Of a stretch of DNA of 64,000 nucleotides, positions 7,352 to 20,142 are shown one piece after another. The notes under the pieces were generated by a model. That model saw only the letters and a program-made list of their open reading frames with translations. It had not been told where the DNA came from and ran no database searches. Source of the stretch: Promethearchaeota archaeon (GTDB taxonomy: Archaea; Asgardarchaeota; Lokiarchaeia; Sigyniarchaeales; SOKP01); NCBI GenBank assembly GCA_048937405.1, contig JBHLNF010000008.1, forward strand, positions 32,001-96,000, written 5' to 3'. Made by a program: the position numbers and the translations under genes. Positions within the stretch are counted from its first letter, which is position 1; each line of letters begins with the position of its first letter.

Positions 7352-8278
7352 ATGAATGAGCAGTATCGAGAACGATTTATTAGCAATAAAATCAATGAAG
7401 AAAAATTACCTCAAAATATTTGTTGTGATAATCCTTTTATTGAATCTCGAGATGGGAATAAAGTTTGTTTAAATTGTGGAATTATATTTGAACGTACATT
7501 CGTAGGAAATGAGAGACGAGCTTACACTATAGAAGAAATACAAAATAGACGTAGAACAGAACCACGATGGAGAGATTTTGGGCCCCGGACTATGCTACCA
7601 AATACCAAAACGGATAGTAAAGGTAAATCAATAGGTGCTAAAGAACAAGCACTTTTTTCTCGACTTTCAAAAATTCAGAATTCATTAATTTCAAGTATAG
7701 AAAGGAATTTTTGGGAAGCGAAACCAAAATTAAAAATGTTAACTTCTAAATTAAATATACCAGAATATATTGCAGAGACGGCTTGGAAAATTTATAGTAT
7801 CGTTGCAAAAAAGAAATTAACTATGGGTAGATCAATTAATGGTTTTATTTCTGGATCTTTATATGCTGCTATTCGCGTCCATGATTTTCCACGATTATTA
7901 GATGAGATATGTGAAGCCTCATTAACACCACGACGAACTGTCCATAGAAGTTTAGCAATGATTATTCGTGAAGTGCTTCCTGAATTAAATTTAAGATATC
8001 AGCCTATAACTGCTGAATCACTAGTATTCCGTTTTGGAAATGAGCTAGATTTACCTATTAAAATACAAAAAAATGCTATTAATATGTTAAGAGATGCTTC
8101 AAAAAACGGATTGAAGCGAACTGGTAAAGATCCAAAGGGTTTAGCAGCAGCATGTATATATATTGCGGCAAAAAATGGGTGTATTCGGAAAACACAGTCT
8201 AAAGTAGCTGATGTAGCCAAAATTACAGAGGTTACCCTTAGATCTCGAGCAAAACAAATAAAAAGTAAATTATCCTAA
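7352..8278 (+). CDS. tfb: Transcription initiation factor IIB (TFB)
   Basis: Zn ribbon (CC...VCLNCG), ERNF..A, GRS, GKDPKGLAAACIYIA, TQ..VA.VA.ITEVTLRSR cyclin repeats. Confidence 0.93.
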   Translation: MNEQYRERFISNKINEEKLPQNICCDNPFIESRDGNKVCLNCGIIFERTFVGNERRAYTIEEIQNRRRTEPRWRDFGPRTMLPNTKTDSKGKSIGAKEQALFSRLSKIQNSLISSIERNFWEAKPKLKMLTSKLNIPEYIAETAWKIYSIVAKKKLTMGRSINGFISGSLYAAIRVHDFPRLLDEICEASLTPRRTVHRSLAMIIREVLPELNLRYQPITAESLVFRFGNELDLPIKIQKNAINMLRDASKNGLKRTGKDPKGLAAACIYIAAKNGCIRKTQSKVADVAKITEVTLRSRAKQIKSKLS

Positions 8279-9015: not shown

Positions 9016-9987
9016 TTGAAAAAAAAGGCAAACTTAGATTCGGAAATTTCAGTGTGTTCTCATCAAAATGTTAAAAAGGATAGTGGATTTTATGTATGTC
9101 AGGATTGCGGTTTAATCATGGAAGATAATTTGGCATTTGAAGAAACTGTACCTTTCAGTGAATACTTTACAGATTCACAGAGAGAGTATGAACGACGAAT
9201 CCGAATTGGTGATTCAAAAGCTCTCCAAGATCCAATAATAAAAGAAAAATATGATCGAATTAAAACTCTTGAGAAATGGTTTAGAGATTATAAATCTGAT
9301 TTTACGGAACAAAAGAAAACAATTGAGTTATTAAAAGGGCATGGTATTGGATTAAATATCGATCAAGTAAAATATGCAGGGATTAAAGATAGATATTTGA
9401 AGTATAATAAATATCACCGACATAATTATCAAAACACGGTGATAATCTTTCTTGCAATTGTGTGGATGGAGATAAAAGATACGACAAATATCCGAATCGA
9501 AGCATATATTGATGTATCCAAAAAATTGGGGCATAAGATAAATAAAAAAATGCTAAATAACGCAATGTTAAAAGTAAAACGGACTGAAAATATGTTAAAA
9601 AGTAAAAAAACTATTTTAGATATAGAGAAAGAAATTAAAAACCGAATAAAAATTGTATTCCAAAAAGATTTAAACAATATACCTCATAACAAAATCCAAG
9701 AAAATATACCTGATAAAGAAGAATACGAAAAAATTAAAATGGAAATGCTGTTGTTAGTTGATATAATTCTTAATAAAATCTCATATAAACATATTCAAAA
9801 CCGAAATTATAAGGCATTTACGGCGGGATTGATGTATTATATTGGTCAGACTCTCGATAATAGAAAAATTTTTACCCAAAGTTTGATTGAAGAAGCAACA
9901 AAATTTTCAAGTACTACTATTAGAAAAAAATTTCATGTTTTAAAAGATCTAATAGGAGATCCTGAGATGCTTAGAGTAAAAATATGA
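9016..9987 (+). CDS. Divergent TFIIB-like protein (Zn ribbon + two degenerate cyclin-like repeats)
   Basis: CSH...VCQDCGLIM ribbon; C-terminal KAFTAGLMYYIG...TQSLIEEATKFSSTTIRKKF parallels TFB repeat 2. Confidence 0.7.
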   Translation: MKKKANLDSEISVCSHQNVKKDSGFYVCQDCGLIMEDNLAFEETVPFSEYFTDSQREYERRIRIGDSKALQDPIIKEKYDRIKTLEKWFRDYKSDFTEQKKTIELLKGHGIGLNIDQVKYAGIKDRYLKYNKYHRHNYQNTVIIFLAIVWMEIKDTTNIRIEAYIDVSKKLGHKINKKMLNNAMLKVKRTENMLKSKKTILDIEKEIKNRIKIVFQKDLNNIPHNKIQENIPDKEEYEKIKMEMLLLVDIILNKISYKHIQNRNYKAFTAGLMYYIGQTLDNRKIFTQSLIEEATKFSSTTIRKKFHVLKDLIGDPEMLRVKI

Positions 9988-10075: not shown

Positions 10076-12955
10076 ATGTCATCATTAGAGAAAAAAGAGA
10101 ACTCTTACTATTATAATCAACCAATTGAAAAGTTAATTAAAACTTTCAATACTGATATTAATCATGGTATAAATTCTTCTGAATTATATGAGAGACATCT
10201 AAAATATGGATATAATGAAATATCGAGAATTAAAAAATCTATATGGAAGATTTATCTAGCACCAATTTTTAATTTTTTAATCGTAATTTTATTAGTAACT
10301 GCAATTATAGTAGCTATTTTAGGCTCGATTGGGGATACTGTTATAACTTTTAGTGTAATTGTTATCAATTCTGCTACAGCTATAATCCAACAATTTAGGG
10401 CTCAAAAAGCTTTAGAATCTCTTAGAGAAATTTCAGGTTTAAAAGCAAATATTCTACGGGATGGTAATCAATATGAAATTGTTACGAGAGAATTAATTCC
10501 CGGGGATATTGTTATACTTGAACAAGGAGATAAAATACCAGCTGATGGGAGAATAATAGAAGAAATGAATTTAACTATTGATGAAGCTCCATTAACAGGT
10601 GAAAGTGAACCCGTAGAAAAAAATAATAAACTTATAGAAGAAATGGAAATAACAATTCAAAAGCAATCAAACATGGTATTTATGGGTACATATGTTCAAA
10701 CTGGTCGAGCAAAAGAATTGGTAACTGGAATTGGAATGAATACAGAAATTGGAAAAATCTCTCAAACCTTAAATGAAATGGGTAGTATTGAAGATATTCC
10801 ACTAACTAGAAAGTTAAATAGACTCGGGTACATCTTAGGGACCTTAGTAATAATAAATTTAATTATTTTAATAATTTATAAATTTTCATGGCTTTTAATT
10901 CAAAAAAATTTCATTGAAAGCCAAATTATTGATGCATTAGTGGATTCTATATTAAGAGCGATGAATATTGTTCCTATTAATTTACCATTATTATCTACTT
11001 TAGTCCTAATCACTGGAGTTTTGACAATGGCACAAACAGGAGTTATAGTCAAAAATTTATCCGCAATAGAATCTCTTGGACGAGTATCTGTTATATGTTC
11101 AGATAAAACTGGTACTATAACAAAAAATGAGATGACTGTTGAAAAATTTTGGGTAAATGAAAAAGAATATGATGTTACTGGTTCTGGGTATGATGCAGAA
11201 GGAGAAATTTTAAAAAGTGGTAATCCAATTGGACTAGATAATAATTCTACATTTCAAATGTTTATTGATTCTATCGTTGTGAATAATAATGCGAGTCTTA
11301 TATTTGAGGATGTAAGGGTAAAATTAAGAGATCTAAAAGAAAAAGCAATAAGGAAAGCATTAGGATCACCTACAGAAGCTGCATTATTGGTATTAGCTGA
11401 AAAAGCTGGTTACTTTACATATGATATCAAAAAAAAATATGAAATATCTGCTGAATATTCTTTTAGTTCTGAATTCAAAAGGATGACGTCAATTTGTAAG
11501 CTGGTTTCGGATAATTCAACTATTTATGCCTTTTCTAAAGGAGCACCTGAAAGAATTTTGAAAATTTCCTCTCAAATTGAAATAAATGGTACTCTCAAAT
11601 CTTTTGATGTTGAGTATAAAACCCAAATTTCTGATAAAATAGACGAACAAGCCAAAAAAGGATTTAGGACATTAGCAATAGCATATAAAAGATTAAATTC
11701 AAGTATTAATGAAAAAAGAGAAGAAGTTGAGAGAGATTTAATCTTTTTAGGATTTGTCTCAATTATGGATCCACCTCGAGAAAATGTTAAAGAATCAATA
11801 GAAATTTGCAAAAAAGGTGGTATAAAAGTAATAATGATTACTGGTGATCATCCTGCTACAGCTCAAACAGTAGCTTCTCAAATGGGTATCTTTTCTGAAG
11901 AAAACTTAGTCGCAACTGGAGATCAAATTAAAAATATGAATCTATCAGAGTTTAATAAAACCACGGTTTTCGCTCGTGTAGAGCCAACTGATAAAGAGAT
12001 TATTGTTAGAAACTATCAAAATCAAGATTATATATGCGCTATGACAGGGGATGGGATAAATGATGCACCTGCATTGAAATTAGCTAATGCGGGAATCGCA
12101 ATGGGAATAACAGGAACGGACCTTGCTAAAGAGGCTTCGGACATGGTAATTACAGATGATAATTTTGTATCTATTAAGCAAGGTGTTAAAATTGGAAGAG
12201 GAATATTCGCAAAAATAAGAACGATTATTTTTTTCTTTATTTGTACAAATATAATGGAAGGAATCATCTTTTTTGGTTTTGAAATGCTTCAACCATTTAC
12301 TGGATTTGAATTGTTCTCTTCAAATTGGCAACATATCTATATTTTTGGAATCTTGCATTCTTTTCCATCCTTAGCATTAGTTTTAGATATTCATCCAAAA
12401 GACATCATGAATAATCCCCCTAGAAATGAAGAAGAATTATTGAATAAGAATTTATGGCTATTCTTATTAGTTCAAGCTTTTCTTGGAGGTCTAGGTTTAA
12501 TTTTAGCATTACAATTGACTTTAAGTGGTTTAATTCCCTTGAATTCTTGGAATCTAAATGATTCATTAAGCTATTTGCCAACTGGAGCAACTGAAATAGA
12601 TATGCTACATATGAAAGCAAGAACTATGTTTATAACAACAATTTATATCTTTGAATCATTTTTCATTTGGACGTTTAGACGTCCAAACAAATCATTATAT
12701 AAGAGTTTGAAGGAAGAAATTAGTTATACCTTATTGCTTATTTGTATTTTTACATTAGGTTTACATATTCTTTTTATATGCTTTTCTTACACAGTTAATT
12801 ATTACGTAAATGATATACTTGCGTTAGACTTACAAATTAACTTCATTTTCCTTAGCGGAACAGATTGGATAATATGCTTTTTACTTACCATGCCTGGTAT
12901 ATTAGGAATTGAACTATTTAAATACTTAGCAAGAGATAGGCAAATTTATTTTTAA
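10076..12955 (+). CDS. P-type ATPase, P2A-like scaffold with non-canonical transport site
   Basis: LTGESEP, CSDKTGT (D343), KGAPE, DPPR, MITGDH, MTGDGINDAPAL; M4 reads PINLP. Confidence 0.92.
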   Translation: MSSLEKKENSYYYNQPIEKLIKTFNTDINHGINSSELYERHLKYGYNEISRIKKSIWKIYLAPIFNFLIVILLVTAIIVAILGSIGDTVITFSVIVINSATAIIQQFRAQKALESLREISGLKANILRDGNQYEIVTRELIPGDIVILEQGDKIPADGRIIEEMNLTIDEAPLTGESEPVEKNNKLIEEMEITIQKQSNMVFMGTYVQTGRAKELVTGIGMNTEIGKISQTLNEMGSIEDIPLTRKLNRLGYILGTLVIINLIILIIYKFSWLLIQKNFIESQIIDALVDSILRAMNIVPINLPLLSTLVLITGVLTMAQTGVIVKNLSAIESLGRVSVICSDKTGTITKNEMTVEKFWVNEKEYDVTGSGYDAEGEILKSGNPIGLDNNSTFQMFIDSIVVNNNASLIFEDVRVKLRDLKEKAIRKALGSPTEAALLVLAEKAGYFTYDIKKKYEISAEYSFSSEFKRMTSICKLVSDNSTIYAFSKGAPERILKISSQIEINGTLKSFDVEYKTQISDKIDEQAKKGFRTLAIAYKRLNSSINEKREEVERDLIFLGFVSIMDPPRENVKESIEICKKGGIKVIMITGDHPATAQTVASQMGIFSEENLVATGDQIKNMNLSEFNKTTVFARVEPTDKEIIVRNYQNQDYICAMTGDGINDAPALKLANAGIAMGITGTDLAKEASDMVITDDNFVSIKQGVKIGRGIFAKIRTIIFFFICTNIMEGIIFFGFEMLQPFTGFELFSSNWQHIYIFGILHSFPSLALVLDIHPKDIMNNPPRNEEELLNKNLWLFLLVQAFLGGLGLILALQLTLSGLIPLNSWNLNDSLSYLPTGATEIDMLHMKARTMFITTIYIFESFFIWTFRRPNKSLYKSLKEEISYTLLLICIFTLGLHILFICFSYTVNYYVNDILALDLQINFIFLSGTDWIICFLLTMPGILGIELFKYLARDRQIYF

Positions 12956-13096
12956 TGAGATATTATCTTTTTCTTATCCTTTAATAATCTTATGATATCT
13001 TTAAATTAAATGATTATTATAGGTTATTTATTAAATGAATTAGAAATTAGAATTCAATTATAACTAACTATTCTTAATAATTCTGGAAGACTTAAT

Positions 13097-15973
13097 ATGG
13101 AAACTACAGATGAAAAATATTATAATATTGAATTAGAGCAAATTTATCAAAAATTTCAAACTAATTCTAAAACAGGATTAACTCAAAAAGAAGTTATTAA
13201 AAGATTAGAAAAGTATGGATATAATGAGATTCCTAAAGTATCCAAAGGATTCATTAAAATCTATTTAGCACCTCTATTTAACTGGCTTATTGTCATTTAT
13301 TTAATTGGGGCATTAATTTTATTTTTAGCATGGTTATTTGGAGGTGAGGGTGATTTAATTTTCATTTCAATTACTCTAGGAATTGTATTTTTAAATTGTT
13401 TTGTTGCTATTGTCCAGCAATATAGAGCTACAAAAAAGCTTAAAGCCTTACGTGAACTTACTGCACCTACTTCGACTATAATTAGGGATGGACAAAAACA
13501 AGATATCCCAACTAAGGAAATTGTAGTTGGAGATTTATTAATATTAAATCAAGGAGATAAAGTCCCTGCAGATGCCAGAGTTATTGAATCTTATAATTTA
13601 GTAATTAATGAAGCTTCATTAACAGGAGAATCTGAACCTGTAAGAAAATCTGAATCAGGAAGAGCATTACAAAGAAAAGATATTTCAATAGGAGAACGTA
13701 ATAATATGGTATTTTATGGAACCTACATAACTACTGGAAATGGTAAGTCTATTGTCGTCAAAACGGGAGGAAATACTGAAATTGGTAAAATTTCTCATGG
13801 TTTAGAAGAAGCAGGTACCAGTGAAATACCGATTAGAAAAAAGATGAATAATTTTGGAAAGTGGTTAGGGTTAATAACTTTTGCTTTTTGGTTTATAATA
13901 TTAATTATTCTTTGGGCCGTGAGGGGAGAAGTTAGTATTGTTGAGAGTATGAATTCTGCGCTTGATTTAATGCCAATCAATTTACCATTGCTCTCTACTA
14001 TTGTTTTGATTACAGGTGTAGTAGCTATGGCCCATCGTGGTGTTATTATAAGAAATTTGGCTTCTGTTGATAGTTTAGGTAGAGTAAGTGTTGTATGTTC
14101 AGATAAAACAGGGACACTAACGAAAAATCAAATGTCAATTCAACATGTATGGACAAATGGATCGATATTTAGAGTAACTGGTAGTGGTTATAATCCCGAA
14201 GGAGACATTATTTTAATGGATAATCCAAAAAACCCAACTTATGTGAAGCACATTAATGATTTTCCATATTTAAAGATGCTTTTAACTGCTGGATTTTTAA
14301 ATAATAACTCGGCACTAATAAAAAGCGAGATTGATATTTCAGGGAAGATAATTCCTAATTGGAATGTAGTAGGCTCACCTACTGAAGGTGCACTCATGGT
14401 TTTATTTCAAAAGGGTATGGGGGATTATCTACTTGATGACTATGAATCTATCACTGAATATCCTTTCGATTCATCATTAAAAAGAATGACTAAACTTTAT
14501 AAAAAGGATCATGCTTATTATTCTTTTACTAAGGGGGCAAGTGAAATTTTAATTCCCCAATGTACAAAAATCTTATATAACGATTCTGAAATCAATTTAA
14601 GTGAAGAAATAAAAAATAAAGTTATAGAAATTGTAAATCTATATGCTAATCAGGGATATCGAATTTTAAGTCTGTGTTATAAAATAATGGATACCATTCC
14701 ACCAGAAGGTGATAAAGGAAGAGAAATTAGTGAATCAGATATGATTTTTATAGGATTTGTAACAATACTGGATCCTCCTAGAGAAGGGGTAAAGGAATCT
14801 GTAGAACAATGCCATGAAGCAGGTGTGGATGTAGTAATGATTACTGGTGATTCCCCTTCAACAGCAAGAGCAATTGCCTCACAAATTGGGATTGTCACCA
14901 ATGAGAGTGATATGGCAATTGAGGGAAAGGATATAAAAAATTATGAATCCTATGATGAGTTTAAAAATATCAAAGTTTTTGCTCGTGTATCTCCAGAACA
15001 TAAAGAAGAAATTGTAGAAAAGTATCAAGAACAGAAAAAAGTAGTAGCGATGACCGGTGATGGTGTGAATGATGCGTTAGCATTAAATATGGCAGATGCA
15101 GGAATTGCCATGGGAATTACAGGAACTGATGTAGCTAAAGAAGCTTCTGACATGGTTATATCTGATGATTCTTTTAATTCAATAGTAATTGGTATTAACC
15201 ACGGTAGGGGGATATTCGCAAGAATCCGTGCTGTCGTATTTTTTTATATTTGTATTAATGTATTTGAAGGCCTTGTTCAATTTATACTAGCAATTATATT
15301 AGATTTACCCTATTTCTTAGATGAGAATTTCCAATTTCAATGGGTTTTTCTTTCAATAACTTTACATCTTTTTCCAGGATTGATTCTTACATTTGATACT
15401 ACTTCTGAAGATGTTATGAAAGAAAAGCCAAGAGATTCAGAAGAAATTCTCTCAAAAAATATCTTATATTTACTATTTGTATTTGGTATCTTACTTGCTA
15501 CAAGTATGGTAATAGTATATTACATTACAATTACGGGTATATATCCAGTTTCTTCTGAAAACTTAATAGAAGGTTATCTATATTATGATGAGAGCTTATT
15601 ACCAACGGATATCGATATAAATGAGATCCGAATCATTGGAAAAACCTTAACAATGATGATGTGCACTCTTTTTTTCTGTGAATCTATTCTTATATATCAG
15701 ATTAGAAGACCTAATAAATCTTTGATAAAAAGCCTTATTGAGGATCGAACTAAATTCATGTTCGCTTTAATTGGTGTTTTATATTTTATATTCCTTGCTC
15801 TGATATATATTCCTGGAGTACAAATTTTCCTAGCAGAATCATGGGGGGTCAATTTTATGTTTATGTTTTTAACGGGATTTGATTGGTTAGTATGTTTCTT
15901 GATTTCATTAATTTGCATCGTTTCTTTTGAAATCGTCAAATTTATTGCTCGAAAAAAAGGAATTACATTTTAA
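13097..15973 (+). CDS. P-type ATPase, tandem paralog, same non-canonical transport site
   Basis: LTGESEP, CSDKTGT (D336), KGASE, DPPR, MITGDS, MTGDGVNDALAL; M4 reads PINLP. Confidence 0.92.
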   Translation: METTDEKYYNIELEQIYQKFQTNSKTGLTQKEVIKRLEKYGYNEIPKVSKGFIKIYLAPLFNWLIVIYLIGALILFLAWLFGGEGDLIFISITLGIVFLNCFVAIVQQYRATKKLKALRELTAPTSTIIRDGQKQDIPTKEIVVGDLLILNQGDKVPADARVIESYNLVINEASLTGESEPVRKSESGRALQRKDISIGERNNMVFYGTYITTGNGKSIVVKTGGNTEIGKISHGLEEAGTSEIPIRKKMNNFGKWLGLITFAFWFIILIILWAVRGEVSIVESMNSALDLMPINLPLLSTIVLITGVVAMAHRGVIIRNLASVDSLGRVSVVCSDKTGTLTKNQMSIQHVWTNGSIFRVTGSGYNPEGDIILMDNPKNPTYVKHINDFPYLKMLLTAGFLNNNSALIKSEIDISGKIIPNWNVVGSPTEGALMVLFQKGMGDYLLDDYESITEYPFDSSLKRMTKLYKKDHAYYSFTKGASEILIPQCTKILYNDSEINLSEEIKNKVIEIVNLYANQGYRILSLCYKIMDTIPPEGDKGREISESDMIFIGFVTILDPPREGVKESVEQCHEAGVDVVMITGDSPSTARAIASQIGIVTNESDMAIEGKDIKNYESYDEFKNIKVFARVSPEHKEEIVEKYQEQKKVVAMTGDGVNDALALNMADAGIAMGITGTDVAKEASDMVISDDSFNSIVIGINHGRGIFARIRAVVFFYICINVFEGLVQFILAIILDLPYFLDENFQFQWVFLSITLHLFPGLILTFDTTSEDVMKEKPRDSEEILSKNILYLLFVFGILLATSMVIVYYITITGIYPVSSENLIEGYLYYDESLLPTDIDINEIRIIGKTLTMMMCTLFFCESILIYQIRRPNKSLIKSLIEDRTKFMFALIGVLYFIFLALIYIPGVQIFLAESWGVNFMFMFLTGFDWLVCFLISLICIVSFEIVKFIARKKGITF

Positions 15974-16039: not shown

Positions 16040-16585
16040 ATGCTGGGAAGAATGCGGGTTAAATTAGGACCTATTAAAAGAGAATATATCGATTCATTTC
16101 TCAAATGGTTTAATGATCCAGAAATTACTCAATATCTAATAATGTACCGTCCAATGACTAGGATGGCTGAAGAAGATTGGATTGAGAACCTTAAAGAAAA
16201 TGATGATGATATCCATTTTTCTATTGTTGTTTTCCATGAAGATGATCCTGAAAAGTTAATTGGAAATTGTGGATTACACAAAATTAATTGGAAAGATAGG
16301 ATTGCTGAAGTTGGAATTGTTATTGGAGAAAAAGAATATCAAAATAAGGGATATGGAACTGAAGCGTTGGATATTTTATTAGAATACGGCTTTGACACGG
16401 TTAATTTAAATCGAATCGAATTATATGTTTATGAATATAATACTAGAGCCATAAAATCCTATAAAAAGGTAGGATTTGTTGAAGAAGGACGAAAAAGACA
16501 ATTTATTTGGCATAAAGGAAAATATTATGATACTATATTGATGAGTATCTTAGCAGAAGAGTGGTATGGAAAAAAAAAATCATAA
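16040..16585 (+). CDS. RimJ/RimL-type GNAT acetyltransferase
   Basis: AEVGIVIGEKEYQNKGYGTEA, LNRIELYV...N.RAIKSY.KVGF..EG. Confidence 0.9.
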   Translation: MLGRMRVKLGPIKREYIDSFLKWFNDPEITQYLIMYRPMTRMAEEDWIENLKENDDDIHFSIVVFHEDDPEKLIGNCGLHKINWKDRIAEVGIVIGEKEYQNKGYGTEALDILLEYGFDTVNLNRIELYVYEYNTRAIKSYKKVGFVEEGRKRQFIWHKGKYYDTILMSILAEEWYGKKKS

Positions 16586-16677: not shown

Positions 16678-17991
16678 ATGAATAAACCAATTGTATCTAT
16701 TGTTAAGTATGAGAAACCATTAGAATCTGTTCGAAAAGTAATTGAGATGGCAAAATTATTCGAAAATTTGCCAAAAAATGCAAAAGTAATCATCAAACCT
16801 AATATAGTATATTGGAATCTTTACCCTCATCCAAAATGGGGTTGCATTACTACCTCTCGAGTAATGGAAGATGTTATATTCTTACTAAAAGAGCATGGAA
16901 TTACTGATATATCTATTGGTGAAGGATTTAGTGATGATGAACATGCTGAAGATGCTTTTAATAAGTTAGGTTATAATAATCTTAAGGAAAGATATGGTGT
17001 AAAATTAATTAATACAAGTTCTCGTCCCTTTAAGAAAATAGATATGGGGTGTGATTTTTTAGTTAATTTCAGTTCAGATGCTCTTGAAGCAGATTATATA
17101 ATTGATCTTCCTGTATTAAAAACTCATTCTCAAGCCGTTGTAAGTCTTGGAATCAAAAATTTAAAAGGTTATATAAGTATACCTTCGCGTAAGAAGTTTC
17201 ATGGTGCTGATCCTATTAAGAATTTGCATTTTAATGTCGCTAAATTAGCAAATAACATCCCTCCTTGTTTAACTGTCATTGATGGAATTTACACACTTGA
17301 AAGAGGTCCTACTCTTGATGGAAAAGCTCATAGAAGTAACATTTTAGTTGCTTCTACAGATATCCTTTCTGCTGATCTTGTTGGTACCAAATTATTAGAT
17401 ATAGAACCCTCGATAGTACCTCATTTAGTTCAAGCCGCCAAAGATAGAAATAGAACCACTTCTTTATCTGAAATTGAAATTGTAGGAGAAAAAATTGAAG
17501 ATCTTGCAACTCCTCATGAGTGGGATTATATATACAATGAAGCAGGTGATTTACCTTTACCATTTGAACGTAGAGGCTTTGAAGGAATAAAATATCGTAA
17601 ATATGATACGACAATGTGCACGTATTGTTCTGGTATCAACGGCATCTTACTCGTTCTACTAATGAATGCTTGGCAAGCTAATGAAGGTAAACCTTTTGAT
17701 AATCTTGAGTTTTTAACAGGTAAGGTTATGGAACCTTCACCAGGGGTTAATAAAACAATATTAGTGGGACAATGTCAATATAACTTAAATAAGGATAATC
17801 CAATAATTAATGAAATGATACCTATCAGGGGTTGTCCTCCTTCCTTGGATGACGTTAAAGAGGCTTTTGTAAATTGTGGTATAAAAATTAATCCTGAGGT
17901 AATTGACAACTCAAGGCAAGGAGCATCATTCTTTTATCAAAAGTATAAAGGCAAACCTGAATTTGAGGAATCTTTTTATCAAATTGAATAA
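16678..17991 (+). CDS. DUF362-domain Fe-S protein
   Basis: IKPN, PVLKTH, SLGIKNLKG, IDGI...E.GP; C-terminal CTYC...GQC...GCPP. Confidence 0.8.
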   Translation: MNKPIVSIVKYEKPLESVRKVIEMAKLFENLPKNAKVIIKPNIVYWNLYPHPKWGCITTSRVMEDVIFLLKEHGITDISIGEGFSDDEHAEDAFNKLGYNNLKERYGVKLINTSSRPFKKIDMGCDFLVNFSSDALEADYIIDLPVLKTHSQAVVSLGIKNLKGYISIPSRKKFHGADPIKNLHFNVAKLANNIPPCLTVIDGIYTLERGPTLDGKAHRSNILVASTDILSADLVGTKLLDIEPSIVPHLVQAAKDRNRTTSLSEIEIVGEKIEDLATPHEWDYIYNEAGDLPLPFERRGFEGIKYRKYDTTMCTYCSGINGILLVLLMNAWQANEGKPFDNLEFLTGKVMEPSPGVNKTILVGQCQYNLNKDNPIINEMIPIRGCPPSLDDVKEAFVNCGIKINPEVIDNSRQGASFFYQKYKGKPEFEESFYQIE

Positions 17992-18021: not shown

Positions 18022-20142
18022 TTACTTTGTTTTAAAATATTGAATTGGTTGATATATTGACATATTAATTTTACTATACAAATTAGAATCAGTAATTTCG
18101 GTTAACCATGAGTAGCTAGAATCAGGTTTTAAAGGTTTCCATCGAGTATTTACTAAAGCTGAACCTTTATTTAAACCATAAGATGGTATTAATATAGAAT
18201 CTAAATATATATTATCAAAATGAGTTAAATCATGTAAATTAATGAAATTGCTTTTTCCTTCGGATACATAAACTGCATAATAAGCATCGAACCCATTTAA
18301 TTCATTTAATGTTGTCCATTTAGTATTAACATAAATCCTTGGATCTCCCTTGTATTTAGGTTTTTCTTCATAAGAAAATTTAATCTTGTTTCTTACTTTT
18401 AAATAATTCTCTAAAAATTTATTATTAGATTGTAAAATACGGGACTTATGTCTGGTTTCGCCATTCGAATAATCTATTGTAAATTTATATTCACCATCTG
18501 CTAAAAAACCATTTCTGTCATAACCAAGGTACCATATCATTTGGTGATTGTAATTATCTATTATATATCCATTTCCATTTTTAATATCAAATAATTGATT
18601 TTTTAAATTAAATTCATAATCTTTTGGACCTTTAATTCTGATATTTTTTATTAAATTAGTACTTTTTTCTCCAAATAATCCAAAAAATCGAAGTTCAAAT
18701 TTTCCTTGCTTTTCTGGTAGATTATTTGAGTTTTTATTATTATCTAAGAAAAATTGACTTACGCTAATATCATTTATTGGAGGAACGGTTTCATCTACAG
18801 CCTTATCATTAAAAAATGATTCTTGAAATTCGTTGAAGCGATGTTTATATGCCAAACCAAAAAATCGAGGAATATTTTCAAGATTTTCAAAAAAATCAGG
18901 ATGAATTTTAATTCCAGCTTGATGAAATGCTTTTGTAATATTCTTTAATTTGATGGGACAGCCCTTAATGGGGATCATTTCATTTATATCTGGATTGTTT
19001 CTGTGCTTATTAACAATACATTGCCCAAGTAATATCGTTTTTTTCTTTCCTGGCGTGGGATCCATTCTTTTACCCATGATAACCTCAACATCATCCCAAG
19101 GTTCTCCTTGTGTATTATCCCATGCATATATAATAGATAGAGGAATTAAACCAGTTATAAGAGCACAATAAGTGCATGTTGTATTATCATATTGACGAAA
19201 TGAGATACCTTTTATACCTTGTTTGGCAAATGCAATTGGTTGTGAACCATCCTGAGTATATTCAAATTTGTATTCATGATACTTGCGAACGCTTTCAATA
19301 GTCTTCCCAACTATCTCAACATCTGAAAGATCTATAGGTCGATTATTTTCTTGAGCAAAATATGATAAGTATGGTACATCAGACGGATTATGTCCTAAAA
19401 CTGATGCACCAACTTTATCTGCTGAAAACATATCTGAAGAAGTAATTAAAATGTTACTTCTTCTCATTGTTCCATCAAAACCAGGACCTCGTTCGTTTGT
19501 AAAAATACCATCAATAATAGCAATAACAGGTGGTAATTTCTTAGGTAAATGGTATAAGTAAAAGTCCAAATCTTTAATAGGATCAGAATTATGGCATTCT
19601 TTTCTTGAGGGAACATCAATTAAGCCTTTTAAGTTTTTTAGGCTAAGGCTAACTTTTGCTTGACTATGTGTTTTAAGAACGGGTAATGAGATTATCAAGT
19701 CACTATTTAAAGCATCGGTATTAAATTTTAACTTAATATTATCACCTAAATCCAATTTTTCAAAAGGTCTTTCCATAATATTGATTACTTTAAGTCCATA
19801 TTTTTCTTTAAATCTATTATATCCTAAAGTTTCGAATGCATGTGGAGTTGTTTTAAAGTCTTTAGGATCCATATTAACAATTCCTTCTCCAATAGTTATA
19901 TCTTTAATTCCATGCTCTTTGAGTAAAATAATCGTATCTTCAACTATTCTTGATGTTGTTACAACACCATAAGGAGTATAATCGGGAATTGGAAACCAAT
20001 ATACTATATTTGGTTTTAAGAAAACTCTTTCATCTCCTTTAAGAGCATCAAATGCCCCAGATTGGGTTATAACTTTCCTTAAAGAATTAACTTTTTTTCT
20101 ATAACGCGTGATACCGACTCGATATGTTTCCATACCAATCAA
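18022..20142 (-). CDS. DUF362-domain Fe-S protein with about 260 aa C-terminal extension
   Basis: Clear paralog of 16678..17991 (LKPN, PVLKTH, KNLKG, CTYC, GQC, GCP) plus an extra beta-rich domain. Confidence 0.78.
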   Translation of the reverse strand: MIGMETYRVGITRYRKKVNSLRKVITQSGAFDALKGDERVFLKPNIVYWFPIPDYTPYGVVTTSRIVEDTIILLKEHGIKDITIGEGIVNMDPKDFKTTPHAFETLGYNRFKEKYGLKVINIMERPFEKLDLGDNIKLKFNTDALNSDLIISLPVLKTHSQAKVSLSLKNLKGLIDVPSRKECHNSDPIKDLDFYLYHLPKKLPPVIAIIDGIFTNERGPGFDGTMRRSNILITSSDMFSADKVGASVLGHNPSDVPYLSYFAQENNRPIDLSDVEIVGKTIESVRKYHEYKFEYTQDGSQPIAFAKQGIKGISFRQYDNTTCTYCALITGLIPLSIIYAWDNTQGEPWDDVEVIMGKRMDPTPGKKKTILLGQCIVNKHRNNPDINEMIPIKGCPIKLKNITKAFHQAGIKIHPDFFENLENIPRFFGLAYKHRFNEFQESFFNDKAVDETVPPINDISVSQFFLDNNKNSNNLPEKQGKFELRFFGLFGEKSTNLIKNIRIKGPKDYEFNLKNQLFDIKNGNGYIIDNYNHQMIWYLGYDRNGFLADGEYKFTIDYSNGETRHKSRILQSNNKFLENYLKVRNKIKFSYEEKPKYKGDPRIYVNTKWTTLNELNGFDAYYAVYVSEGKSNFINLHDLTHFDNIYLDSILIPSYGLNKGSALVNTRWKPLKPDSSYSWLTEITDSNLYSKINMSIYQPIQYFKTK

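Follow-up and report, generated by a model that had tools for sequence, protein, structure and literature searches.

Two adjacent P-type ATPase genes

We analysed a 64,000-nucleotide stretch of the genome of a Promethearchaeota archaeon of the Asgard class Lokiarchaeia (GenBank assembly GCA_048937405.1, contig JBHLNF010000008.1, positions 32,001 to 96,000 of the forward strand; hereafter the window), in which two adjacent, co-oriented genes encode P-type ATPases with a rewritten transport site. Gene 1 (P0001; 10076..12955, + strand) encodes 959 residues and its paralogue gene 2 (P0002; 13097..15973, + strand) encodes 958, with an AT-rich spacer of 141 nt (12956..13096; 24 G+C) between them. 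The spacer between the paired genes of related genomes measures 63-212 nt, or about 1 kb. Both open reading frames (ORFs) translate without internal stops, and the two proteins are 42% identical over their full length. Pfam matches in both (Cation_ATPase_N, E1-E2, Cation_ATPase, HAD and Cation_ATPase_C) make up the entire P-type architecture, and the P-type superfamily model TIGR01494 (HAD-IC) scores the two genes at 272 and 298 bits, above its cut-off of 62.

All catalytic motifs are present on the + strand of both genes, and we checked their coordinates against the DNA. Gene 1 carries TGES (10595-10606), DKTGT with the phospho-aspartate D343 (11102-11116) and GDGIND (12047-12064); gene 2 carries TGES (13622-13633), DKTGT with D336 (14102-14116) and GDGVND (15056-15073). 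TGD/DPPR likewise occurs in both genes. Membrane helix 4 (M4) reads PINLP in each, as P300-P304 in gene 1 (10973-10987), where I301 stands in place of SERCA E309 and N302 in place of G310, and as P293-P297 in gene 2 (13973-13987; I294 and N295). The distance from this hydrophobic residue to the phospho-aspartate is 42 residues in both (I301-D343, I294-D336). M6 reads QHIYIFGILH in gene 1 (Q752..H761; 12329-12358) and QWVFLSITLH in gene 2 (Q748..H757; 15338-15367), which puts F757/L760/H761 and S753/L756/H757 at the positions of SERCA N796/T799/D800 and gives the two copies a different M6 lining (F or S) at the N796 position. The M5 pair N..E is kept, as NIME in gene 1 (N725..E728, corresponding to SERCA N768/E771; 12248-12259) and NVFE in gene 2 (N721..E724; 15257-15268), and so is the M8 Glu, as E860 (SERCA E908; 12653-12655) and E862 (15680-15682).

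Two alignments agree on this register. A HMMER alignment with Listeria LMCA1 places PINL on PEAL and F/L/H on its M6 N/N/D, and in a 131-sequence alignment with about 100 canonical pumps PINLP falls on PEGLP and the M6 residues on N..TD. The Ca2+ ligands of P2A pumps, namely the Glu of M4 PEGL and the M6 Asn..Thr-Asp, are replaced by I301/I294, F757/S753, L760/L756 and H761/H757. The initial annotation had read the site in the same way: its retained TGES, DKTGT and GDGxND hold on both translation and DNA, its M4 PINLP with the Ile 42 residues before the phospho-aspartate is found in both genes, and the alignments bear out its M6 residues and its kept M5 N..E and M8 Glu.

An Asgard-centred clade

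Gene 1 shares 66-93% identity with its 120 best database homologues, whose named sources are Asgard metagenome-assembled genomes (MAGs; Promethearchaeota/Lokiarchaeota, Thor-, Hermod-, Hod- and Odinarchaeota). Homologues go under the names "cation-translocating P-type ATPase", "Ca2+-transporting ATPase" and "Calcium-transporting ATPase 1", the last being the name of KKK40933.1 from Lokiarchaeum GC14_75; the expectation that automated pipelines would call such genes Ca2+-ATPases was correct. An exhaustive HMMER search of 1.8 billion cluster representatives with gene 2 turned up the signature in at least 29 full-length clusters at the 50% identity level, followed in rank by ordinary PEGL/D800 pumps.

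These sequences, with P-hydrophobic-N-hydrophobic-P in M4 and His in M6, form one side of a branch in a FastTree phylogeny of 104 rows (Shimodaira-Hasegawa (SH)-like support 99). In an IQ-TREE phylogeny of 54 rows the same branch has an SH approximate likelihood ratio test (SH-aLRT) value of 100, and it again has 100 after removal of 110 columns around every trait position. The clade is monophyletic. Within it, gene 1 belongs to a small, deep sublineage (P0001-type) and gene 2 to a large one that spans most Asgard families (P0002-type). Because the two genes lie in separate sublineages, the tandem pair appears to be an old paralogy and not a recent duplication, a pattern that faster evolution of gene 1 could mimic.

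To describe the distribution, we used an even sample of 151 Asgard genomes, in which matches of at least 572 bits were all of the new type and matches of at most 546 bits were all PE[GA]L pumps, save one truncated gene; the threshold was verified on 25 new-type and 17 PE[GA]L genes. By this measure the clade is present in about 90 of the 151 genomes and in 12 of 27 families. Among the 20 genomes of the window's family with both paralogues, 17 carry them side by side in the same orientation, the gene-1 type being the upstream one. We also scanned the DNA of one genome per GTDB species for the degenerate motif [IMV]-PIN-x-PLL-[ST]-T, counting a locus as genuine if DKTG followed at the right distance. 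This returned at least 80 loci, at least 56 of them genuine. Those genuine loci among the ones listed that have an informative label are Asgard, including Candidatus (Ca.) Lokiarchaeum ossiferum, with four exceptions: two Nitrososphaeria MAGs (L058, L080), one Bathyarchaeia MAG (L128) and one "Aerophobetes" contig. A search across archaea for PINLP with an M6 His had been proposed in the initial annotation; in the surveys made here the clade is almost only Asgard.

The first three exceptions are nested among Asgard sequences in the tree, which could reflect horizontal transfer into Thermoproteota or a binning error. The fourth (L068; NJBP01000013.1, 'Ca. Aerophobetes bacterium Ae_b3b') carries a gene-2-type pump almost the same as the one in G147, an Asgard genome from the window's family, so the contig is probably Asgard DNA that was mis-binned with a bacterial MAG. 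In another Asgard family, the gene-2 type has undergone an independent tandem duplication (L031; G025:C86:700-8000), whose copies are sisters in the tree. Five proteins (P0162, P0199, P0235, P0244 and P0262) are 1400-1700 residues long, with the ATPase in the C-terminal half fused to a long, uncharacterised N-terminal part.

Conservation of the rewritten site

We compared 59 diverse clade members with 42 canonical neighbour sequences. The E309 position is hydrophobic in 59/59 clade members (I in 81%, otherwise V, F, L or W) and the G310 position is N in 92%, giving the M4 consensus P-[IVLFW]-N-[ILF]-P. At the D800 position, 98% have H, and N796 and T799 are lost. The remaining ligand positions are retained (N768 in 92%, E771 in 100% and E908 in 93%). 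As identical changes recur in 59/59 diverse members, those seen in the pair go far beyond chance. Judged from the sequences, the altered positions are under strong purifying selection and are not decaying, and the argument for selection that had been made from the two paralogues thus extends to the clade. Gene 1 also has an Asn three residues ahead of its M4 Pro (N-x-x-P-I-x-L), which the clade as a whole does not conserve.

Further clade-specific changes lie outside the site itself. In the cytoplasmic entry region, M1 has Q56->P and M2 has E109->Q and E113->Q/E/T, and in M3 we find D254->N and T247->I; read from the alignment, these changes in M1, M2 and M3 neutralise an acidic entry region. 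Clade members have an extended L7/8 loop in which a Pro and an Asn are conserved, and their M8 is preceded by a Lys in 93% and followed by an Arg in 86%.

One Asgard family (f5) departs from the M4 consensus, with the Asn replaced by Thr (PITIP; L019, L030) or Met (PIMIP; L032/P0133). The PIMIP protein has 'HD' in M6, with an Asp directly after the His, possibly a compensating change within the site.

Kinship with known P-type families

Kinship with P4, P5 and eukaryotic pumps was judged by hidden Markov model scores and PDB rankings rather than by tree. Genes 1 and 2 score 467 and 442 bits with the SERCA-type model TIGR01116 (equivalog cut-off 703.4) and 477 and 495 bits with the PMR1-type model TIGR01522 (798.3), reaching neither cut-off. 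Among NCBIfam models, the P2A models rank top for seven clade members, at 421-522 bits against cut-offs of 703 and 798. Clade scores amount to 0.55-0.65 of the P2A equivalog cut-offs; the neighbouring PEGL proteins P0156, P0167 and L023 exceed these cut-offs. With the P4 model TIGR01652, the two genes score 127 and 99 bits (cut-off 431), other clade members 89-106 bits and canonical bacterial P2A pumps 91-110 bits. The P5 model TIGR01657 gives 238 and 246 bits for the genes, 223-285 for the clade and 243-265 for ordinary P2A pumps (cut-off 618). The initial annotation had also likened the pair to P3A proton pumps; with TIGR01647 the genes score 351 and 353 bits and the clade 311-365, under the cut-off of 615.5, and the M6 position where P3A pumps have Asp is His, so membership of P3A falls away by score and by residue.

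Structural comparisons point the same way as the P2A scores. All of the best 60 rows of a PDB sequence search are P2 pumps, led by LMCA1 (the top match, at 1e-129), SPCA1 and SERCA (1e-129 to 1e-103). The M4 segment alone matches MgtA, SPCA1, Pma1 and SERCA, and the M5-M6 segment alone matches SPCA and SERCA only, weakly; no flippase appears in the best 60 rows of either the whole-protein or the M4-only search. An AlphaFold2 model of gene 1, built on a 100-sequence alignment, is confident, with a predicted local distance difference test (pLDDT) score of 89.3 and a predicted template-modelling (pTM) score of 0.85; it has 10 transmembrane helices, with M4 unwound at 297-302 (PIN) and the M6 helix broken at H761. 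The top 50 matches of a fold search are all P2 pumps (SERCA, SPCA1, LMCA1, Na,K-ATPase and H,K-ATPase), the best with TM-scores of 0.7-0.8, and the highest of these are E2P-like states. By these measures, the clade is a diverged branch of the P2A-like pumps and shows no additional similarity to P4, P5 or P3A that can be measured. Its nearest characterised relatives by both sequence and fold are the P2A pumps, which is kinship and not membership.

The site can be set against each family in turn. With P2A pumps (LMCA1, SPCA1/PMR1, SERCA) the clade shares 10 transmembrane helices, TGES, DKTGT, GDGxND, the M5 N..E, the M8 Glu and the Pro-centred unwinding of M4; P2A pumps differ in the E309, G310, N796, T799 and D800 site, in the shorter L7/8, in the acids of M1, M2 and M3 and in lying on a separate branch. 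P4 pumps (ATP8A1/2, Drs2, Neo1) also have Ile where SERCA has E309, and after it come a small polar residue and then Leu, so that PISL (compared here by description) differs from PINL in having Ser for Asn, and they too lack an acid at the D800 position. In contrast to the clade, they have DGET, whereas both genes have TGES, and the clade keeps two buried Glu and the M5 Asn and is prokaryotic. P3A pumps (AHA2, Pma1, archaeal MJ1226-type) share a hydrophobic residue at the E309 position (PIAM/PVAL vs PINL) and possibly a single protonatable site, but their proton-carrying M6 Asp is His in the clade. P5 pumps (Spf1, ATP13A2) share TGES and have PPELP or PPALP in M4, with the functional residue (Glu or Ala) at +2 from the first Pro and the second Pro at +4, as in PINLP; unlike them, the pair has no P5-type N-terminal extension. 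Finally, the P6 family (Mycobacterium CtpE) is likewise prokaryotic and P2-like with its M6 Asp replaced, and it is reported to import Ca2+ without that Asp, indicating that such rewiring can yield a working pump of changed direction; it is set apart, by description, in keeping PEGL, in having Ile rather than His in M6 and in occurring in bacterial phyla, not Asgard (PMC10654040). On sequence, the clade is a subfamily variant of P-type ATPases whose combination of site residues matches no family compared.

Genome content and gene neighbourhood

The genome encodes six P-type ATPases: this pair, two CPC-type P1B pumps, one P3A pump and one P2A-like pump with a canonical site. The P3A pump (G000:C27, L003:82-2556, - strand) scores 992 bits with TIGR01647 against the cut-off of 615 and has PVALP in M4. 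The P2A-like pump (G000:C18, L013:507-3395, + strand) has the full canonical site (PEGL, N..E, N..TD, M8 E and M2 QE..AE) and scores 618 bits, under the P2A cut-offs. A canonical pump and a clade member occur together in many Asgard genomes of several families, which argues for a separate job for the latter. P3A pumps are present in 26-27 of the 151 Asgard genomes, about 20 of which also carry the clade; a complementary distribution of clade and P3A pumps was considered, and no such pattern appears in the 151 genomes.

The neighbours of the pair in the window are TFB-like genes, a GNAT gene and genes for DUF362 proteins. A TFIIB/TFB homologue (7352-8278, +) lies just upstream and co-oriented, followed by a 323-residue ORF (9016-9987, +) in which Pfam finds only a weak zinc ribbon of the TFIIB type and no cyclin repeats. 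Directly after gene 2 comes a GNAT acetyltransferase (16040-16585), and downstream of it are two convergent genes for DUF362 proteins (16678-17991, +, and 18022-20142, -), one of 706 residues. Across 56 loci, no conserved neighbour hints at a substrate; the recurrent neighbours (ketopantoate hydroxymethyltransferase, subtilase, SCP2, glutamine synthetase and MFS) reflect lineage-specific synteny.

What the pumps may transport

All the catalytic motifs and the P2-type membrane domain needed for a phosphorylation cycle are present, the latter as seen in the model. Most likely, judging by their sequences, both genes encode proteins capable of catalysis, from a clade centred on Asgard archaea that split from P2A-type pumps and retained a normal phosphorylation cycle. 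In SERCA, Ca2+ site II consists of E309, N796 and D800, of which D800 also bridges to site I, and mutagenesis has found E309 and D800 to be indispensable for Ca2+ binding and occlusion. Site II is also the sole Ca2+ site of the single-site pumps LMCA1, SPCA and PMCA. In the clade, site II would be abolished by the exchange of the M4 Glu for a bulky hydrophobic residue, of the M6 Asn for a hydrophobic one and of the bridging M6 Asp for His. Since E309, N796 and D800 plus T799 are all replaced, loss of Ca2+ transport is expected from the work on SERCA, and we infer from the sequences that the clade pumps are not Ca2+ pumps.

What is left would be a site-I-like cluster under strict selection, made up of the M5 Asn and Glu and the M8 Glu together with the newly acquired residues, His in M6 and Asn in M4. 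Our tentative preference, held with slightly less than even confidence, is that a different small cation or a proton is handled at this single remodelled site. The M6 His might be a ligand, or it might balance the two Glu as a built-in counter-charge, like KdpB Lys586 and the M5 Arg of P3A pumps, for which such a role is accepted (PMC10654040). With a built-in charge, one half-cycle would no longer depend on an ion, which, given the neutral cytoplasmic funnel, would suit an uptake-type pump: with the acidic funnel lost, phosphorylation could proceed without a cytoplasmic ion and the substrate would be taken from outside. Spontaneous phosphorylation is described for P4 pumps (PMC10654040). The loss of Ca2+ transport, the single site, the role of the His and the direction of transport are all things that we infer. 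The tandem copies probably differ in specificity or affinity, as they appear to be old paralogues with a different M6 lining (F vs S at the N796 position).

Several points weigh against a cation or proton as the cargo. Among the families compared, a hydrophobic M4 residue and a non-acidic M6 occur together only in P4 pumps (see also PMC10654040), which favours a non-ionic cargo, and the neutralised acidic funnel also fits a non-cationic substrate. No conserved neighbour gene points to the substrate. H761, E728, E860, N725 and N302 are placed close to one another by homology only, and transport of a cation or proton is itself proposed from sequence and a model. The idea of a His-liganded metal, raised in the initial annotation, has one residue in its favour, the M6 His; the 221 clade sequences contain no His- or Cys-rich metal-binding stretch. 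Lastly, as CtpE is reported to import Ca2+ without the M6 Asp, loss of D800 alone is compatible with Ca2+ (PMC10654040).

A serious rival, which we nevertheless hold to be unlikely, is that these pumps are flippase-like and move a lipid or amphipathic cargo (archaeal phospholipids and lipid-linked glycans would be examples) along a groove formed by M1, M2, M4 and M6, with the hydrophobic M4 residue as a gate as in P4 pumps; such a mechanism could have arisen independently or be distantly related to the origin of P4. The resemblance of PINL to PISL, the bulky hydrophobic residue at the E309 position in 59/59 members, the loss of the M6 acid and the change of the M1, M2 and M3 acids to Pro, Gln and Asn all fit this picture, as does a distribution nearly confined to Asgard, given the view that P4 pumps occur only in eukaryotes and that their origin is unknown (PMC10654040). 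However, the A-domain has TGES rather than DGET, the P4 model scores the clade at the level of ordinary P2A pumps, and flippases are missing from the best 60 PDB rows (whole or M4-only) and the top 50 folds. These observations, together with the P5-model scores and the non-conserved Asn ahead of the M4 Pro, leave the suggestion of an intermediate between P2 and P4 unsupported. Two buried Glu, an Asn and a His are also nearly invariant at the canonical ion site, where P4 pumps have no acid, and a Lys in M5. We found no match to CDC50 (PF03381) in the genome and none to the P4 model in the 151 Asgard genomes, both in searches run without a positive control; the CDC50 beta subunit goes with P4A and P4C pumps, and P4B pumps need none. 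That the clade as a whole is an archaeal P-type pump for lipids or lipid-linked substrates, a P2A-derived counterpart of the P4 flippases, by convergence or shared origin, in those archaea that are most closely related to eukaryotes, seems to us rather doubtful.

It is quite improbable that the substrate is an organic cation or a larger polar molecule (polyamine-like, as in P5B), or that the proteins cycle without transport as a sensor or scaffold. The polar residue of P-x-N-x-P does occupy the +2 position of P5 PPELP/PPALP, the buried Glu residues are kept and the longer L7/8 loop has its conserved Pro and Asn. Yet P5-model scores equal those of ordinary P2A pumps, far from the cut-off, and the clade has fewer, not more, of the acidic residues that typify the pathway of polyamine pumps; a mere scaffold would hardly be expected to conserve every catalytic motif so strictly. 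It is very improbable that the annotation is right and that these are ordinary Ca2+ or Ca2+/Mn2+ pumps in which Asn, His and Glu have taken over as ligands. In favour of this, the clade's nearest characterised relatives are Ca2+ pumps, M5 N..E and the M8 Glu are retained and CtpE handles Ca2+ without the M6 Asp (PMC10654040), but E309, N796, T799 and D800, and with them the whole of site II, are replaced consistently in the clade, its scores fall well below the P2A equivalog cut-offs and canonical-site pumps coexist in the same genomes.

Implications

Our searches of the open-access literature found no mention of this clade, of the PINIP/PINLP motif or of a His in transmembrane helix 6 of Asgard P-type ATPases, and with its separate, monophyletic position this upholds the proposal of a subfamily without prior description. 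A 2023 review of the superfamily recognises families P1-P6, with P4 unique to eukaryotes, and does not mention Asgard pumps; just one family (P6) has been added since 1998, and the reviewers expect more in prokaryotes (PMC10654040). A study of the Asgard transportome reported orthologues of a "putative Ca2+ ATPase (3.A.3.2.21)" in all five proteomes and tied them to Ca2+ signalling (PMC7997004). We considered whether these orthologues are this clade; the Lokiarchaeum entry in the published table is KKK45636, the clade member identified is KKK40933.1, and identity of the two sets was not established.

P-type ATPase families are defined by what the M4/M5/M6 site binds, and here that site has been rewritten in a large, strongly conserved clade. 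Most of the Asgard lineages sampled have it, among them the cultured Ca. Lokiarchaeum ossiferum, and it often occurs as two old paralogues. The Ca2+ annotation that the clade carries throughout the databases is probably wrong, and inferences about Asgard Ca2+ signalling that draw on "Ca2+ ATPase" orthologues should check the type of pump. If the cargo is an ion, the clade would represent a new solution to selectivity, built from a His, two Glu and two Asn; if it is a lipid, the clade would be relevant to how membrane asymmetry arose in eukaryotes.

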